Positions 2,065 through 7,336 of a DNA stretch of 64,000 nucleotides are shown in pieces. A model generated the notes under the pieces. The model saw nothing but the letters and a program-made list of their open reading frames with translations. It ran no database searches and was not told the origin of the DNA. How positions within the stretch are numbered: the first letter of the stretch is position 1; each line of letters begins with the position of its first letter. The translations under genes and the position numbers were made by a program. Origin of the DNA: Escherichia phage ST0; the sequence record MF044457. One strand, given 5' to 3'.

Positions 2065-3390
2065 ATGCAATTGAATTCTCGTAATCTAAAAAGTATTATT
2101 GATAACGAAGCCTTAGCATATGCGATGTACACCGTTGAAAACCGTGCAATCCCAAACATGATTGATGGATTTAAGCCGGTTCAACGTTTTGTGGTTCATC
2201 GTGCGTTAGATTTGGCTCGTGGTAATAAAGAAAAATTTCATAAACTTGCGTCAATTGCAGGAGGTGTTGCAGATTTAGGTTATCATCATGGCGAATCTTC
2301 TGCACAAGATGCAGGTGCATTGATGGCTAACACATGGAACAACAACTATCCGTTGTTAGATGGCCAAGGCAACTTTGGTTCTAGAACAGTCCAAAAAGCT
2401 GCAGCATCTCGTTATATTTTTGCTCGTGTAAGTAAAAATTTCTATAACGTATATAAAGATACTGAATATGCTCCAGCTCATGAAGATAAAGAACACATTC
2501 CGCCAAAATTCTATCTTCCTATTATTCCGACAGTTCTTTTGAATGGCGTCTCCGGTATTGCAACCGGTTACGCAACAAATATTCTGCCTCATAGTTTTAA
2601 ATCAGTCAAAAAGGCTGTATTACAAGCTCTTCAAGGTAAAAATGTCACTAAGCCAAAAGTTGAATTCCCGGAATTCCGTGGTGAAGTACATGAAGTTGAT
2701 GGGCGTTATGAGATTCACGGAACATATAAGTTCACATCTCGCACTCAAATGCAGATAACTGAAATCCCATATAAATTCGACCGTGAAACGTATGTGAGTA
2801 AGGTTCTTGACCCGTTGGAAGACAAAGGTCTAATCTCATGGGAAGATGATTGTGGTGAACACGGCTTTGGGTTTAAGGTGAAGTTCCGTAAAGAGTACTC
2901 GCTTCCTGATGATGAAGAGCTACGTCATGAAAAAATCATGAAAGATTTTAGTCTCATCGAACGTCGTTCACAAAACATCACAGTGATTAATGAAAAGGGT
3001 AAATTAGCAGTCTACGATAACGTAGTGGACTTAATCAAAGATTTTGTTGAAGTCCGTAAGACTTACGTTCAGAAACGTATTGACAACAAAATCCTTGAAT
3101 CTGAAAAAGCGTTTAAACTTGCTTTTGCTAAGGCACACTTCATCAAAAAAGTTATTACAGGTGAAATTGTGATTCAGGGCAAGACTCGTAAAGCTTTGAC
3201 TGAAGAGCTAGCACAAATCGAAATGTATAAAGAACATGTCGATAAACTGGTAGGTCTTAACATCTTCCATATCACTTCCGACGAAGCACGTAAACTGGCA
3301 GAAGAAGCTAAAGCTAAGAAAGAAGAAAATGAGTATTGGAAGTCTACCGATGTTGTGACAGAGTACACTAAAGACTTGGAGGCACTTTGA
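2065..3390 (+). CDS. 52: DNA topoisomerase II medium subunit gp52
   Basis: 441 aa; recalled T4 gp52 similarity throughout, length matches T4 (442 aa). Confidence 0.95.
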   Translation: MQLNSRNLKSIIDNEALAYAMYTVENRAIPNMIDGFKPVQRFVVHRALDLARGNKEKFHKLASIAGGVADLGYHHGESSAQDAGALMANTWNNNYPLLDGQGNFGSRTVQKAAASRYIFARVSKNFYNVYKDTEYAPAHEDKEHIPPKFYLPIIPTVLLNGVSGIATGYATNILPHSFKSVKKAVLQALQGKNVTKPKVEFPEFRGEVHEVDGRYEIHGTYKFTSRTQMQITEIPYKFDRETYVSKVLDPLEDKGLISWEDDCGEHGFGFKVKFRKEYSLPDDEELRHEKIMKDFSLIERRSQNITVINEKGKLAVYDNVVDLIKDFVEVRKTYVQKRIDNKILESEKAFKLAFAKAHFIKKVITGEIVIQGKTRKALTEELAQIEMYKEHVDKLVGLNIFHITSDEARKLAEEAKAKKEENEYWKSTDVVTEYTKDLEAL

Positions 3391-3466
3391 GTGCCCTAGC
3401 CTTAGGATTTCTCGGTGCAATAGCTGCACTAGTGATTTGGCTGTATTGGTTGGACAAACATGATTA

Positions 3467-3487
3467 GGGAGCTTCGGCTCCCTTTTG
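3467..3487 (+). terminator. rho-independent terminator
   Basis: GGGAGC-TTCG-GCTCCC hairpin followed by TTTT. Confidence 0.7.
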
Positions 3488-3507
3488 TGCATTTTTCTCG
3501 CAAAACA

Positions 3508-3536
3508 GTTTACATGTGCTTCAAACATGATATTAT
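3508..3536 (+). promoter_or_regulatory. early promoter (GTTTAC, 17-nt spacer, TATTAT)
   Basis: GTTTAC at 3508-3513, TATTAT at 3531-3536; the roughly 70-bp promoter-to-ATG cassette is nearly identical to the one at 3829-3897. Confidence 0.65.
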
Positions 3537-3575
3537 AGACCTATCAAAACAAAACAACCAAATTGGAGAAATAAA

Positions 3576-3791
3576 ATGTCTAAAATGAAATTAACCCAAA
3601 ACACAACTACTCGTTTTGGTAAAGTTAAACCTGGTATGAATGCTCCCCGTAAAGCACTTGTTGAAGAATTAAATTTCTTAGAAGTTGAAATCAATTCTTT
3701 AGTGGTTCGCGGTTCAAATGGTCATCATTTAGAAAAGCTTCGTTCTAAAAAGGCAAAACTTATTGGCCTTATTAAAGAAATGAGTTTGTAA
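3576..3791 (+). CDS. hypothetical basic protein (71 aa)
   Basis: ORF with SD GGAGAA and upstream early promoter. Confidence 0.5.
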   Translation: MSKMKLTQNTTTRFGKVKPGMNAPRKALVEELNFLEVEINSLVVRGSNGHHLEKLRSKKAKLIGLIKEMSL

Positions 3792-3828
3792 ATTTTACCA
3801 GGGCTTTTGAAAAAGAGCCCAAAATAAA

Positions 3829-3857
3829 GTTTACTTTTGCTTCAAACATGATATTAT
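3829..3857 (+). promoter_or_regulatory. early promoter (GTTTAC, 17-nt spacer, TATTAT) upstream of motA
   Basis: GTTTAC 3829-3834, TATTAT 3852-3857; near-duplicate of the 3508 cassette; preceded by hairpin GGGCTTTT...AAGAGCCC at 3801-3820. Confidence 0.65.
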
Positions 3858-3894
3858 AGACCTATCAAAACAAATACTAATTTGGAGAAATAAA

Positions 3895-4527
3895 ATGTCT
3901 AAAGTTACTTACATCATCAAAGCTTCTGAAAACGCTCTGAATGAAAAAACTGCTGCAATAATGGTTTATATCATTAAGAACAACTTCACCACTGCTGCCA
4001 ATGTCCGTGAAGCTCTGGAAGCGGAATACAATGCATCGGTTGTTAACTCTAACATTGGTGTATTGATTAAGAAAGGTTTAGTCGAAAAATCTGGTGATGG
4101 ACTTATAGCAACAGGCGAAGCAATGGATATTATCCAAAAAGCTGCAGACCTCTTTGCCCAAGAAAATGCTCCAGAACTTCTTCAGAAACGTAACACTAGA
4201 AAAGCACGTGGAGTTACTCCTGAAATGCATGAATTAGCAAACTTTGTTTTTGAAAATATTAAAGATAAAGTTGAAGTTAAAGAAATTGGTGAAAACCGTA
4301 GTAACTTGGAAGTTCGATTTGCAAAACGAGTTCTAGGTATTCGTCAGATCGAAATTCGTCGAAATGGTTCTCTTAGAATCTTTGCATACAACATGTCAGA
4401 AACCGAATCAAAGCTGTTTACTTCTCTTGAAAATGATGTTAAGATTAAGATCGGTGGTAAATATACTTACATTGACTTCCCTAATGTGTCCAAAGAAATC
4501 ATTACCCTTGTAACTAACGTACTGTGA
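3895..4527 (+). CDS. motA: middle-transcription activator MotA
   Basis: 210 aa; recalled T4 MotA similarity (MSKVTYIIKAS...NSNIGVLIKKGLVEKSGDGLI...AQENAPELL). Confidence 0.93.
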   Translation: MSKVTYIIKASENALNEKTAAIMVYIIKNNFTTAANVREALEAEYNASVVNSNIGVLIKKGLVEKSGDGLIATGEAMDIIQKAADLFAQENAPELLQKRNTRKARGVTPEMHELANFVFENIKDKVEVKEIGENRSNLEVRFAKRVLGIRQIEIRRNGSLRIFAYNMSETESKLFTSLENDVKIKIGGKYTYIDFPNVSKEIITLVTNVL

Positions 4528-4537
4528 GGAATACATA

Positions 4538-4882
4538 ATGAATAAGCTGAATATTATTAACGAACTTCGTAAATGTGCAGAACCTACTCAGGAAGGATGG
4601 GATATTTGGTACCACGGGGCTTATCTTGGAACTATAGTTAAAGTTAAAGCTGGGTTATATTTAATTATTCGCGAAAATTCTGAATTCCCTAATGGAGTAG
4701 CTCCTGGCGGTATACGTAAAAACTTTATGGCAGCGATCAGTTCATTTGTTGATGCCGCTTACGAAATCTATAAAGAAGATTATAAAGAATATCAGCAGTC
4801 ACAACCGGTTATTCGTTCGATTGGTGTAAATAAACAAGCACAAAAATCTATTTGGCAACGTATTAAGGAATGGTTTAAATGA
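4538..4882 (+). CDS. hypothetical protein (114 aa)
   Basis: ORF with SD; accessory island between motA and asiA. Confidence 0.5.
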
Positions 4883-5340
4883 AATCATTTAAAGAACGTT
4901 TAGAGCTATTAGATTTGGCCTTGTCTCGTGAGACTCCTGAAAGTCTAGCAGAAAAATTCCAGTCCTACGGTTATAATTATTCTGCTGATGATATAATGAA
5001 TGAAGTTCCTGAAATCTGTTGGCAAACGTGCTATTGGAATAATGACCAAAAAGTTCAACGTGTTATAGTATGTGCAGCTAATAGGTTTAAATTGAAGAGT
5101 GGTGGAACTCTGGTTATTCCTGGAGTTCGTCATTACTCTAAAGATATGGCTGAAGTACTTGATATAGTTGGTCCTCAATTAGTCTCGCAACAAGTTTGTG
5201 GTGACGACCAAGGCTTTATCGACCAATACTCTAATTACTGGACTCGTGAAGAAGCAATGATTATTGCAACGTATGCTGGACAGGCACGTATTGAACGTGG
5301 CGGAAGTGAGAAAGAACTTTATTCAGAGGACCTTTATTAA
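4879..5340 (+). CDS. hypothetical protein (153 aa)
   Basis: ORF with ATGA start/stop overlap with the upstream ORF. Confidence 0.5.
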
Positions 5341-5621
5341 TGAATATTAAACAACTCCAGAAAGATGCTATTGAATCACGTATCCAAGATATCAAACGTC
5401 TTAATCATATGATGGAAGAAAACTATGGTATGTATGCTAATCAGCCTGGTTGGGACGCTTTAGACCATCCTTATTTGGTTAATTTATGTAAAGGTGATAC
5501 GTTAGCAATTATTCGTGATGGGTTAAAACCTTTCTTGCGTGACATGTATATTAAAATGAACGAAGAAATTATTAGCTCGTTGCAATATCAATTAAGGAAA
5601 TTAGATGATAAGAATAATTGA
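5340..5621 (+). CDS. hypothetical protein (93 aa)
   Basis: ORF with TAATG overlap; position and size are compatible with an arn-type gene but I do not recognise the sequence. Confidence 0.45.
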   Translation: MNIKQLQKDAIESRIQDIKRLNHMMEENYGMYANQPGWDALDHPYLVNLCKGDTLAIIRDGLKPFLRDMYIKMNEEIISSLQYQLRKLDDKNN

Positions 5622-5823
5622 TTCTAAAGTAGATTATTTTAATTCTGTTAATGATAAGAATAAAGCTTTAATTCGCCACTTTATTACTGAGATGGGATAT
5701 ACTGACTCTAAAGATTTGAAAGAGCACATTATCGAATGTTCTGTGGCTAAAAAGTTTTCTTTTACCGATAAATGTTTAAATGAGGTTATAAATCATTATG
5801 AACAATCTTGTAGCAAAACATGA
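5605..5823 (+). CDS. hypothetical protein (72 aa)
   Basis: ORF in the same island. Confidence 0.4.
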   Translation: MIRIIDSKVDYFNSVNDKNKALIRHFITEMGYTDSKDLKEHIIECSVAKKFSFTDKCLNEVINHYEQSCSKT

Positions 5824-5906
5824 TTTCAATAAGGCTTCCGTCCATAAGGACAAGAAGAAATCAGAACTTCAATCTAAACGTAAACAAAAACATAAGGGTA
5901 AAGACT

Positions 5907-6206
5907 ATGCTTACTAAAATCAAAGAAAATCCTGCCACTGAACTTGTTATTCGTTGTGAAGAACTTGCAGAGCTTTATCAGGTTAACCGAGAAGTATATC
6001 GTAGTGTTGTTGCAGATATGGCAGACGAAGTATGTTCTCGTATTCCTTTTAGTGTTGATTTCAATCACATGAAGCCTGGTGAAATCACTATCGTCTTTGG
6101 TTCTGACTATACTGAAGAACGGGCTCTTAATGCCCTAGAATATGAAATGTCATTCTTCGACATACAGGACTACATTGATAGTTATAAGGAACGATATGAG
6201 TCATAA
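5907..6206 (+). CDS. hypothetical acidic protein (about 99 aa)
   Basis: Start chosen at the ATG preceded by SD TAAGGG; the track ORF begins at 5820, so the true start is ambiguous. Confidence 0.4.
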   Translation: MLTKIKENPATELVIRCEELAELYQVNREVYRSVVADMADEVCSRIPFSVDFNHMKPGEITIVFGSDYTEERALNALEYEMSFFDIQDYIDSYKERYES

Positions 6207-6357
6207 TCTTCAGAACGTAGTAGAGGCCGAACGTGAGCGTGAGGCTTTAGTCTATAATGAACTATTAGTTCAGTTCTTGGCCTTACACTCGTACGAACAG
6301 GAAGACTATACCAATTACGTTAAAAGCGTAGAAAAAGCCGTTTACAATCAACACTGA
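6196..6357 (+). CDS. hypothetical protein (about 53 aa)
   Basis: ATG preceded by SD AAGGAA; overlaps the 3' end of the previous ORF. Confidence 0.3.
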   Translation: MSHNLQNVVEAEREREALVYNELLVQFLALHSYEQEDYTNYVKSVEKAVYNQH

Positions 6358-6403
6358 TATTGGTACTATATCCATATCAACTAAGTGGAATGAATAAAAC
6401 GTT

Positions 6404-6676
6404 ATGAATAAAGACATTGAAATCGTACGTGAAATTATTACTATTGCTTCTATTTTGATTAAATTCTCTAGGGAAGATATTGTTGAAGACCGAGCAAGTT
6501 TCATCGGATTCTTGAATGAGATTGGAATTAAAAAAGATGGTCGGCAGCTAAATCAGAATTCGTTTAGAAAACTAATTACAAATTTAACTGCCGAAGAAAA
6601 GAAAACACTGATTAGTGAATTCAATGAAGGTTTTGAAAATATTTATCGTCATTTAGCGATGTATTCTAACAACTAA
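6404..6676 (+). CDS. asiA: anti-sigma70 factor AsiA
   Basis: 90 aa; recalled T4 AsiA similarity (VREIIT.ASILIKFSREDIVE.RA.FI.FLNEIG...LNQNSFRK...EFNEGFE). Confidence 0.95.
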   Translation: MNKDIEIVREIITIASILIKFSREDIVEDRASFIGFLNEIGIKKDGRQLNQNSFRKLITNLTAEEKKTLISEFNEGFENIYRHLAMYSNN

Positions 6677-7336
6677 TTATTTAGCCCTTCCTAGTATTCG
6701 GACCGCTTGGTTGCATATAGCCGCTAAGCGGTCTTCCTCAAGTATATTACTCCCCTTATACCAATACATCGTCACAGTTCCGGCATAGATGTTATCCAAA
6801 TTAAAGTATGGACAACTATACATATAAGAAAGTTCGGCAGTCTTAGATTTTGTAGGCAAAAATGCAAATTCTGATTTAGATGAGAAATGACGGCCACTTA
6901 AATGAATTATATATTCATTGGCCGTTTTATCCACCGGGAATCCGCCAAGGGACTTTTCAGAAATTGTGCTAGGTAGTTTGCCTTCATAAGCTATAAGGTC
7001 GACGAAATAATTTAAGTTTTTAGGTCTGAAAGAATACACAGCACTAAAATCCGCACCAGATGAGATATGAACTATTTGCAGTTGTTCTAGAGCCGCAGAT
7101 TCAAAACGTAAAGCTCGTTCTTTTTGGATTATTTCAGTATAAGTATCATACTTAGCTCTTACATAATAATCCAGCAAAATACTTCCTTTGTACCATATTA
7201 GTGCCATTAGGAACAAAAGAATAATTACCGCTACTCGGGACATTAAAACCTTTCCAGTAGCGTTATCTTTGAAAATACGATCTAGCAACCCAAATAGAAT
7301 ATCACTAAGTGAAAATGATACTTTTGGTGTTGCCAT
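6677..7336 (-). CDS. t: holin T
   Basis: 219 aa; recalled T4 holin similarity (FSAVYSFRPKNLNYFVD.IAYEGKLPSTISEKSLGG.PVDKT, YMYSCPYFNLDNIYAGT.TMYW), N-terminal transmembrane segment. Confidence 0.95.
   Translation of the reverse strand: MATPKVSFSLSDILFGLLDRIFKDNATGKVLMSRVAVIILLFLMALIWYKGSILLDYYVRAKYDTYTEIIQKERALRFESAALEQLQIVHISSGADFSAVYSFRPKNLNYFVDLIAYEGKLPSTISEKSLGGFPVDKTANEYIIHLSGRHFSSKSEFAFLPTKSKTAELSYMYSCPYFNLDNIYAGTVTMYWYKGSNILEEDRLAAICNQAVRILGRAK

Follow-up and report, generated by a model that had tools for sequence, protein, structure and literature searches.

We analysed a window of 64,000 nucleotides (nt) of Escherichia phage ST0 (sequence record MF044457; the window is the whole stretch of DNA analysed, one strand, 5' to 3'), focusing on a block of small open reading frames (ORFs) at positions 4538 to 6357, between the genes for the middle-transcription activator MotA and the anti-sigma-70 protein AsiA. 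The 2.9 kb around this locus share 99.2% identity with Escherichia phage AV117 and 96-99% with about 95 further records, all Mosigvirus, and the window is accordingly assigned to this genus of RB69/HX01-like T-even phages. The local order is gene 52, a terminator hairpin, a 71-amino-acid (aa) ORF, motA, ORFs 1 to 6 and asiA, followed by t, 38 and 37 on the opposite strand. The genes of the locus are as follows.

3895-4527, + strand: motA (Pfam MotA_activ at 1e-39, and MotCF; 52% identity to T4 MotA), whose stop lies 10 nt before ORF1.
4538-4882, + strand: ORF1, full-length Arn.4, 114 aa, isoelectric point (pI) 9.2 (T4 Arn.4 homology; phrog_1594 at 9e-51).
4879-5340, + strand: ORF2, Arn.3, 153 aa, pI 4.7, with an N-module at residues 1-30 (nt 4879-4968) resembling CmdA and a core at about residues 45-153 corresponding to PF26092, 'T4_Y16D'.
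5340-5621, + strand: ORF3, Arn.2, 93 aa (41% identity to T4 Arn.2, E 4e-21; phrog_1844).
5605-5823, + strand: ORF4, long form of Arn.1, 72 aa (T4 Arn.1 homology), whose first 17 nt are shared with the end of arn.2.
5798-5917, + strand: a seventh gene, encoding a very basic 39-aa DUF7230 protein of pI 10.1 (Pfam PF23876), which shares 26 nt with arn.1 and 11 nt with arn.
5907-6206, + strand: ORF5, a divergent Arn of 99 aa with a pI of 4.37 and a net charge of -11, putatively a DNA mimic that counters restriction.
6196-6357, + strand: ORF6, a small acidic protein of AsiA.1 type, 53 aa, pI 4.9 (weak N-terminal homology, and position).
6404-6676, + strand: asiA (Pfam AsiA at 2e-32; 73% identity to T4 AsiA), with its own promoter-like site at 6341-6369 (promoter scan).

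This arrangement is that of a cluster already named 'arn operon' in a preprint on phage T2 (bioRxiv 10.64898/2026.06.19.733364). The T4 and T2 annotations give the identical order arn.4, arn.3, arn.2, arn.1, arn, asiA.1, in the same orientation and flanked alike by motA upstream and by asiA, t, 38 and 37 downstream. Arn.1 to Arn.4 are 41-79% identical to their T4/T2 counterparts, the 83-nt spacing between arn.1 and arn is equal and holds the 39-aa ORF in each case, and arn overlaps its neighbour on either side by 11 nt, as in T4. In addition, tblastn across five genera showed that the order can still be made out in Gaprivervirus VR25, Jiaodavirus Mineola and Winklervirus X20.

The original prediction, made from the letters of the window, had described an accessory island of six packed, unrecognised ORFs in the interval that would hold arn and motA.1-type genes in T4. 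Its coordinates were borne out, with all ORFs on the same strand, although the genes number seven and not six. Its account of tight packing and translational coupling is also a fair one: a Shine-Dalgarno sequence precedes each ORF by 5-11 nt, and the junctions overlap by 1-17 nt, being of the ATGA type, of the TAATG type, or overlaps of 11-17 nt. The comparison with T4 was correct for the arn genes and mistaken for motA.1, which the T4 annotation places on the other side of motA, outside the motA-asiA interval. Neither the lack of recognisable relatives nor the status of a distinct island survived the analysis. Specifically, four ORFs match T4 Arn.1 to Arn.4 by BLASTP, ORF5 is Arn and ORF6 matches AsiA.1, while the order is identical to that of T4 and T2 and some 800-1000 Tevenvirinae genomes keep the five upstream genes. 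None of the ORFs showed homology to housekeeping genes. The block is thus an ordinary one, namely the arn cluster that is known from T-even phages and widely conserved among them; the phage itself shares 99% identity with genomes already deposited. What the present analysis adds is the placing of ORF5 in the Arn family, corrected gene models together with a seventh gene, the absence here of the ArcZ site reported in T2, and an Arn.3 made of two modules with an apparently new predicted fold.

The start of ORF5 was revised. The gene begins at 5907, behind the Shine-Dalgarno sequence AAGGG, and not at the 5820 ATG of the mechanically called 128-aa ORF; PHROG matches span only residues 30-124 of that long form. 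Direct BLASTP of ORF5 against T4 Arn was not significant (E 0.064), and the 5.8-billion-protein index held only six near-identical clusters. An exhaustive HMMER scan of 1.8 billion representatives recovered relatives at 61% and at 30% identity, the latter (protein P0128, E 7e-6) aligning in turn with 90 residues of T4 Arn at 33% identity (E 7e-11), with a shared terminal YEIxDYFE motif. When the ORF5 family profile was used, the best match in the whole PDB was the T4 Arn structure 3WX4 (E 2.2e-4, full length), and hhalign of the family against T4 Arn gave an E of 8e-6. PHROGs 3151 (T4 type), 8202 (ORF5 type) and 20757 (Mineola type) match reciprocally and lie at one and the same locus. ORF5 shows the Arn fold, sits in the slot of T4 arn between arn.1/DUF7230 and asiA.1, and is similarly acidic in composition (pI 4.37 and net charge -11, compared to pI 4.55 and -9 for T4 Arn). 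Together, profile, fold and synteny identify ORF5 as a divergent member of the Arn family.

ORF5 differs from T4 Arn (PDB 3WX4; phrog_3151) in being only 16-17% identical to it in structural and profile alignments, in belonging to a separate PHROG (8202), in carrying an 8-residue C-terminal extension and in being labelled 'hypothetical' in the Mosigvirus records examined. The ORF5 type of arn is genus-restricted (177 records), and both Arn and AsiA.1 are here of Mosigvirus-specific sequence types, different from those of T4 and T2. The ratio of nonsynonymous to synonymous substitution rates (dN/dS) of ORF5 against its VR25 orthologue is about 0.6, far above that of its neighbours, as would be expected for an arms-race protein.

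T4 Arn acts on McrBC type IV restriction, on H-NS and on the PUA-Cal-HAD system, and a single substitution changes its specificity (PMC12871103); the inhibition of H-NS DNA binding goes back to Ho et al. 2014, as quoted in that 2026 preprint. Arn is the sole cluster member with a known function (bioRxiv 10.64898/2026.06.19.733364). The suggestion that the block serves host takeover or anti-defence holds for one member, ORF5, which is a sequence and structural homologue of T4 Arn, the McrBC inhibitor. From its fold and charge, ORF5 is most likely a DNA mimic that sits on the surfaces with which host proteins bind DNA, following the logic of T7 Ocr and ArdA, which are likewise small, highly acidic, early-expressed blockers of DNA-binding defence proteins. 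At an identity of only 16% to T4 Arn, ORF5 probably has a different range of targets, which fits a genus whose DNA contains arabinosyl- rather than glucosyl-hydroxymethylcytosine (PMC8594841). The assignment also corrects annotation, as the true Mosigvirus Arn is labelled 'hypothetical protein' in the records examined, and it stretches the Arn DNA-mimic family to about 16% identity. On the other hand, the label 'anti-restriction nuclease' is attached to homologues of Arn.1, Arn.2, Arn.3 or Arn.4 in many GenBank records, and to PHROG 4452 (Arn.1); these labels were propagated from gene symbols and thus are not evidence of function.

The identities of ORF1, ORF3 and ORF4 as Arn.4, Arn.2 and Arn.1 follow from direct homology. 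ORF1 showed 71% identity to the annotated 68-aa T4 Arn.4, across the C-terminal 73 aa (BLASTP, E 6e-35), and 75% across all 114 aa in the T4 reading frame (tblastn), with homologues in 999 phage records. For ORF3 the corresponding number is 940 records. ORF4 was 79% identical to the annotated 43-aa T4 Arn.1 (BLASTP, E 4e-22) and 71% identical across all 72 aa in the T4 frame, with 805 records. For these three ORFs, the tblastn alignments of the long-form homologues cover 100% of the query. ORF6 matches AsiA.1 by weak homology and synteny: it shares the N-terminus MSHNL with T4 AsiA.1 (pairwise E 0.003), T4 AsiA.1 matches its phrog_5245 at 2.6e-4 over residues 1-28 only, and the VR25 orthologue of ORF6 matches both phrog_5245 and phrog_3762. 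Its position and its 11-nt overlap with arn are those of T4 asiA.1, and its 162 records are all of Mosigvirus type. Beyond these assignments, direct family scans of the six ORFs (Pfam, NCBIfam, PADLOC) returned only PHROG families of unknown function and a PD-T4-9_B module in ORF2, while searches of PDB sequences with the single long form of ORF5 and with profiles of Arn.3, DUF7230, Arn.4, Arn.2 and Arn.1 gave E values all above 0.3.

The ORFs are real genes under purifying selection. Each of the six has homologues in 160-1000 phage records, and for ORFs 1 to 6 the proportion of nonsynonymous differences (pN) was far below that of synonymous differences (pS) against T4, VR25, Mineola and X20. 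The dN/dS ratios, which are approximate in that synonymous sites are saturated, lay between 0.05 and 0.3 for all cluster members except Arn, at about 0.09-0.12 for ORF1, ORF2 and ORF4 against T4 or VR25 (about 0.09-0.10 for ORF1).

The seventh gene encodes a lysine-rich protein that matches Pfam PF23876 (DUF7230) with 49.3 bits, against a cutoff of 27, and phrog_1359 at 4e-22. It is conserved at 67-82% identity in T4, T2, VR25, Mineola and X20, and in the part of the gene that overlaps no other, pN was 0.14-0.16 vs a pS of 0.61-0.75. The gene persists in X20 although arn.1 and arn are absent there. It is unannotated in T4 and in several further records. A resemblance of the 39-aa protein to the ribosome-rescue factor ArfA was considered and dropped, as Pfam and PDB searches gave no support.

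The window also differs from the annotated T4/T2 operon in that arn.4 (114 aa) and arn.1 (72 aa, ATG start) are present as intact long forms, which T4 and T2 annotations give as truncated. By tblastn, all 114 residues of ORF1 and all 72 of ORF4 are covered in nearly every T-even genome, and the long forms are the ancestral state. In T4 the full-length arn.4 (record L004, reverse complement of 3045-3374) has ATA in place of its ATG start, and in T2 (record L008, 1436-1763) a 2-nt deletion puts everything past codon 26 out of frame; an Arn.4 of 109-114 aa is kept in about 990 other phage records, the window included. Full-length Arn.4 was therefore lost in both laboratory strains. The arn.1 gene of T4 (L004, 2175-2393, - strand) and of T2 (L008, 2501-2719) is a gene of 72 aa and not of the annotated 43 aa: the extra 29 codons are open, are conserved at the protein level and begin with a TTG behind AAGGTG. 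In the window, these N-terminal codons (5605-5691) showed a pN of 0.20 vs a pS of 0.64 against T4. With intact long arn.4 and arn.1 and a hidden DUF7230 gene, the T4 and T2 reference annotations of the cluster are incomplete.

These gene models bear on the control of the arn transcript proposed for T2, where the 70 nt upstream of annotated arn.1 are treated as an intergenic regulatory region with an RNase E motif, an ArcZ site lying just before it (bioRxiv 10.64898/2026.06.19.733364). The '70-nt intergenic region' of that model corresponds to the conserved N-terminal coding sequence of long arn.1, and the T2/T4 ArcZ pairing site CCAGGGAAAU to its codons 2-5. The window counterpart of the ArcZ site (5585-5610) reads UUAAGGAAAU. 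Using an ArcZ sequence verified against E. coli genomes, the predicted duplex was -17.0 kcal/mol here vs a mean of -16.8 kcal/mol for shuffled sequences, compared to -26.7 for T4 and -28.5 for T2. In place of the GCAUU RNase E motif, the window has (at 5670-5690) synonymous codons that still encode R-H-F. Since neither the site nor GCAUU is conserved and the duplex is no better than shuffled, ArcZ control as in T2 is unlikely to apply to this phage. An Rfam scan of 3300-6800 gave nothing credible.

As for transcription, the promoter scan identified an early-type promoter (GTTTAC, 16 nt, TGnTATTAT) at 3830-3857, upstream of motA, while no correctly spaced MotA box and no + strand terminator were detected between 3895 and 6676. 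In T2, an abundant RNA runs from arn.4 to arn and behaves like a single transcript (bioRxiv 10.64898/2026.06.19.733364). We infer that motA and the arn cluster are probably co-transcribed from the consensus-matching early promoter at about 3830-3857.

ORF2 is 76% identical to T4 Arn.3 over the full length of 153 aa (BLASTP), and PF26092 is precomputed on all its homologues; the family name, T4_Y16D, was taken from the T4 protein itself and thus carries no function. In an alignment of 61 homologues the N-terminus varied, and a core of about 110 residues was conserved, being invariant at A66, A67, R84, H85, Q111, G112, F113, D115, R123 and Q135. These residues fall in the motifs AANR, RH, QGFxD, R and Q, to which a conserved C-terminal LYSEDLY is added, and the invariant pattern suggests an enzyme or a specific ligand binder. 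ORF2 had been called cysteine-rich, a description that we abandon: it has 4 cysteines in 153 aa (2.6%), three of them shared with T4, with no conserved CxxC pairs and no invariant cysteine column in the 61 homologues, among which C65 is often S or A. The AlphaFold model of Arn.3, a confident one (predicted local distance difference test 87, predicted template modelling score 0.80), had no fold match in the PDB, and the Arn.3 profile found nothing in PDB sequences. Against viral models, Foldseek returned only uncharacterised phage proteins, together with weak similarity of the core, at E values of about 0.005-0.02, to parts of phage 'large polyvalent proteins'. The PF26092 core is thus predicted to adopt a previously unseen fold. 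Longer PF26092 homologues showed no domain fusions in Pfam, and distant homologues sit in arrays of small unknown genes.

The N-terminus of Arn.3 is of a different nature. Residues 1-30 match positions 1-30 of the 77 of the PADLOC profile PD-T4-9_B (E 1.9e-7), and the match is found in 11 of the 61 homologues, at best with 2.5e-10. PD-T4-9 is CmdTAC, a toxin-antitoxin-chaperone defence that targets Tevenvirinae; from gene order and profile length, PD-T4-9_B would be its antitoxin CmdA, in which a pair of N-terminal helices leads into a disordered chaperone-addiction tail. What Arn.3 shares with the CmdA profile, in its first 30 residues, is thus the helical N-terminal part; no Arn.3 match extends beyond about position 33 of PD-T4-9_B or takes in the C-terminal tail, and the rest of Arn.3 is the folded PF26092 core. 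CmdA has no equivalent of this 110-aa core, to which the module is fused, and arn.3 lies in a lytic phage and not in a prophage defence hotspot. The neighbours arn.4 and arn.2 match no PD-T4-9 component and nothing else credible in PADLOC, and no CmdT ADP-ribosyltransferase or SecB-like CmdC stands beside them. Between lineages the N-module is swapped, with other lineages having either none or a different one. All together, these data indicate a two-module protein, with a variable N-terminal hairpin, here apparently of CmdA-antitoxin type, and a conserved PF26092 core.

The module was also encountered in other settings. A 203-aa Arn.3 homologue from a 170.6-kb phage contig (P0004) has two tandem CmdA-like N-modules before the PF26092 core, and unrelated N-modules, e.g. 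MTLFEEYAMLVSNGNADL... and MIPMELDWDGEGF..., occur in other Arn.3 lineages. Stand-alone phage proteins of 51-54 aa match 44-51 positions of the CmdA profile and have no C-terminal tail; these include P0136 (9e-19) and NVP1103O_30 of Vibrio phage 1.103.O (record L007, 2486-2641; 4e-14). In Klebsiella phage PCCM_KpP_22 (record L006, 2198-3160), a 320-aa acidic Jedunavirus protein contains a CmdA-like module internally. No CmdT-like gene was found beside carriers of the stand-alone or internal module, including the short contig of P0136, where the neighbour is not CmdT. In the search for a real CmdA or its genomic context, blastn of the module DNA against E. coli genomes gave no match, a profile run against 5.8 billion proteins returned only Arn.3 fragments and two small proteins, and scans of genome contigs and viral contigs confirmed nothing. 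The CmdTAC-insensitive BASEL phages Bas35 and Bas38 were not among the best 60 module carriers. Regarding arn.3, asiA.1, PF26092 and DUF7230, our literature search found only the 2026 T2 preprint.

We conclude, with a probability of roughly 0.75, that this interval represents the T-even arn operon (arn.4, arn.3, arn.2, arn.1, DUF7230, arn, asiA.1) in its Mosigvirus form, with a counter-defence or host-takeover role. Under this interpretation, motA and the seven small genes would be expressed from one early or delayed-early message, and the seven would be translated as a coupled block through their overlapping stop/start junctions. Arn would then act as a DNA mimic, shielding incoming or newly made hypermodified phage DNA, and the other six proteins would be small factors directed at the host or at its defences. 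The six are probably host-directed, as judged from their operon membership, the purifying selection, the loss in laboratory strains, the genus-specific replacement of arn and asiA.1, and the modular Arn.3. The cluster has further traits of accessory genes, in that full-length arn.4 is damaged in laboratory strains, the arn and asiA.1 types are genus-restricted (177 and 162 records), and X20 is without arn.1 and arn.

Several points weigh against this interpretation. Arn-like activity of a protein only 16% identical to T4 Arn is deduced from fold and charge, and the counter-defence role of the six other proteins is a case of guilt by association. The presence of the five upstream genes in 800-1000 genomes looks more like a core early module than a variable anti-defence island. 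The promoter call is a consensus match only, and the T2 paper (bioRxiv 10.64898/2026.06.19.733364) terms the cluster 'middle'. Finally, the motA-asiA position and the binding of Arn to H-NS would fit a takeover of transcription equally well.

This last point leads to the main rival, in which the cluster would be a transcription and nucleoid takeover module acting with MotA and AsiA, Arn working chiefly on H-NS and the small proteins on RNA polymerase, nucleoid proteins or ribosomes. The location of the cluster between motA and asiA, the probable co-transcription with motA and the H-NS inhibition by T4 Arn that Ho et al. 2014 are quoted for (PMC12871103) are all compatible with it, as are the lysine-rich DUF7230 peptide, of a nucleic-acid-binding kind, and the near-universal occurrence of the five upstream genes in enterobacterial Tevenvirinae, which points to core physiology rather than variable counter-defence. 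However, full-length arn.4 has been inactivated in the T4 and T2 laboratory strains without obvious cost, Arn evolves fast, no cluster member matched any transcription-factor family in family scans and profile searches, and the T2 phenotype caused by lost stabilisation of the arn transcript is suppressed by mcrC deletion (bioRxiv 10.64898/2026.06.19.733364). We regard this rival as unlikely, if still to be taken seriously. More doubtful is the notion of Arn.3 as a dedicated inhibitor of CmdTAC-like systems, with a hairpin that would mimic CmdA and dock on CmdT, and a PF26092 core that would neutralise the toxin or reverse RNA ADP-ribosylation. It draws on the N-terminal PD-T4-9_B match, on the enzyme-like invariant residues of the core, on the specificity of CmdTAC for Tevenvirinae, on the existence of stand-alone phage CmdA-N-like proteins free of the C-terminal degron tail (P0136, NVP1103O_30), and on the predicted CmdT:CmdA:CmdC complex, in which the N-terminal helices of CmdA are the structured part (PMC11618068). 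The match nevertheless spans only 30 residues and is to the PD-T4-9_B profile, whose equation with CmdA is only inferred, and not to an actual CmdA sequence; moreover, the same module occurs inside unrelated phage proteins and beside genes other than CmdT. CmdTAC of ECOR22 still restricts T4 and 10 of the 12 BASEL Tevenvirinae, by 100- to 100,000-fold. The restricted BASEL set reportedly includes the Mosigvirus isolates. T4 escape mutants map to alt.-3 and not to arn.3 (PMC11618068). We give a similarly low chance to the more general version, in which Arn.3 would be a modular counter-defence protein whose swappable hairpin, mimicking the toxin-binding helices of CmdA, delivers a PF26092 domain with an enzyme-like site to a defence toxin, for instance a CmdT-like mRNA ADP-ribosyltransferase, other N-modules addressing other systems.

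Two further readings concern the genes themselves. Some of the ORFs, above all the 39-aa one, and arn.1 and arn.4 in their N-terminal extensions, might be untranslated, their conservation reflecting regulatory elements at the RNA level such as the ArcZ and RNase E sites of T2. The T2 study does treat the 70 nt before annotated arn.1 as intergenic, and before the 39-aa ORF there is only a GAGG, at the rather long distance of 13 nt from the start codon. In all three segments, however, substitutions are mostly synonymous (pN 0.14-0.20 vs pS 0.6-0.75), the ArcZ site and GCAUU are not conserved here while the encoded R-H-F is kept, DUF7230 is a curated Pfam protein family, and X20 keeps the 39-aa gene in the absence of arn.1, which makes this reading very improbable. 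Least probable of all is a lineage-specific island of novel genes unrelated to T4. In its favour stand ORF5 and ORF6: neither has a significant direct BLASTP match to T4 proteins, both are confined to about 160-180 records of Mosigvirus type, and both are labelled 'hypothetical protein' in all Mosigvirus records examined. This idea is refuted by the 41-79% identity of four ORFs to T4 Arn.1-Arn.4, by the profile and fold that place ORF5 as Arn, by the link of ORF6 to AsiA.1, and by a gene order shared with T4, T2, VR25 and Mineola. The arn operon with a counter-defence or host-takeover role therefore remains our preferred interpretation.

The '70-nt intergenic region' on which the model of arn-transcript control is built is coding sequence. 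In addition, this compact and near-universal T-even operon has a known function for one of its seven products, and Arn.3 is the most attractive lead among the others, with its apparently new predicted fold, its invariant polar residues and its antitoxin-like N-module.

The downstream half of the cluster is plastic among related phages. Serratia phage X20 (record L011, 2501-3225) is without arn.1 and arn and carries a 112-aa protein with an AsiA.1-like N-terminus. In Mineola (record L009, 2797-3661), an extra 59-aa gene follows arn.4 and an extra 108-aa gene lies between the Arn-type and AsiA.1-type genes.

Upstream of motA, two stable hairpins were noted. The one at 3466-3483 (GGGAGC-UUCG-GCUCCC plus a U-rich tract, z -3.8) follows gene 52 and is probably its terminator, and the one at 3801-3820 (z -4.3, no U tract) follows the 71-aa ORF. 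This ORF (3576-3791, phrog_6200) takes the place of T4 motA.1 and is unrelated to it. The same region contains a duplicated element.

3823-3903, + strand: early-promoter and 5' untranslated region cassette, 85 nt, with a second copy at 3502-3584.

The cassette (GTTTAC...TGATATTAT...GGAGAAATAAAATGTCTAAA) occurs as a direct repeat whose copies agree at 92% identity over 52 nt and at 84% over 37 nt. One copy precedes the 71-aa ORF and the other motA, and both proteins therefore begin with MSK.

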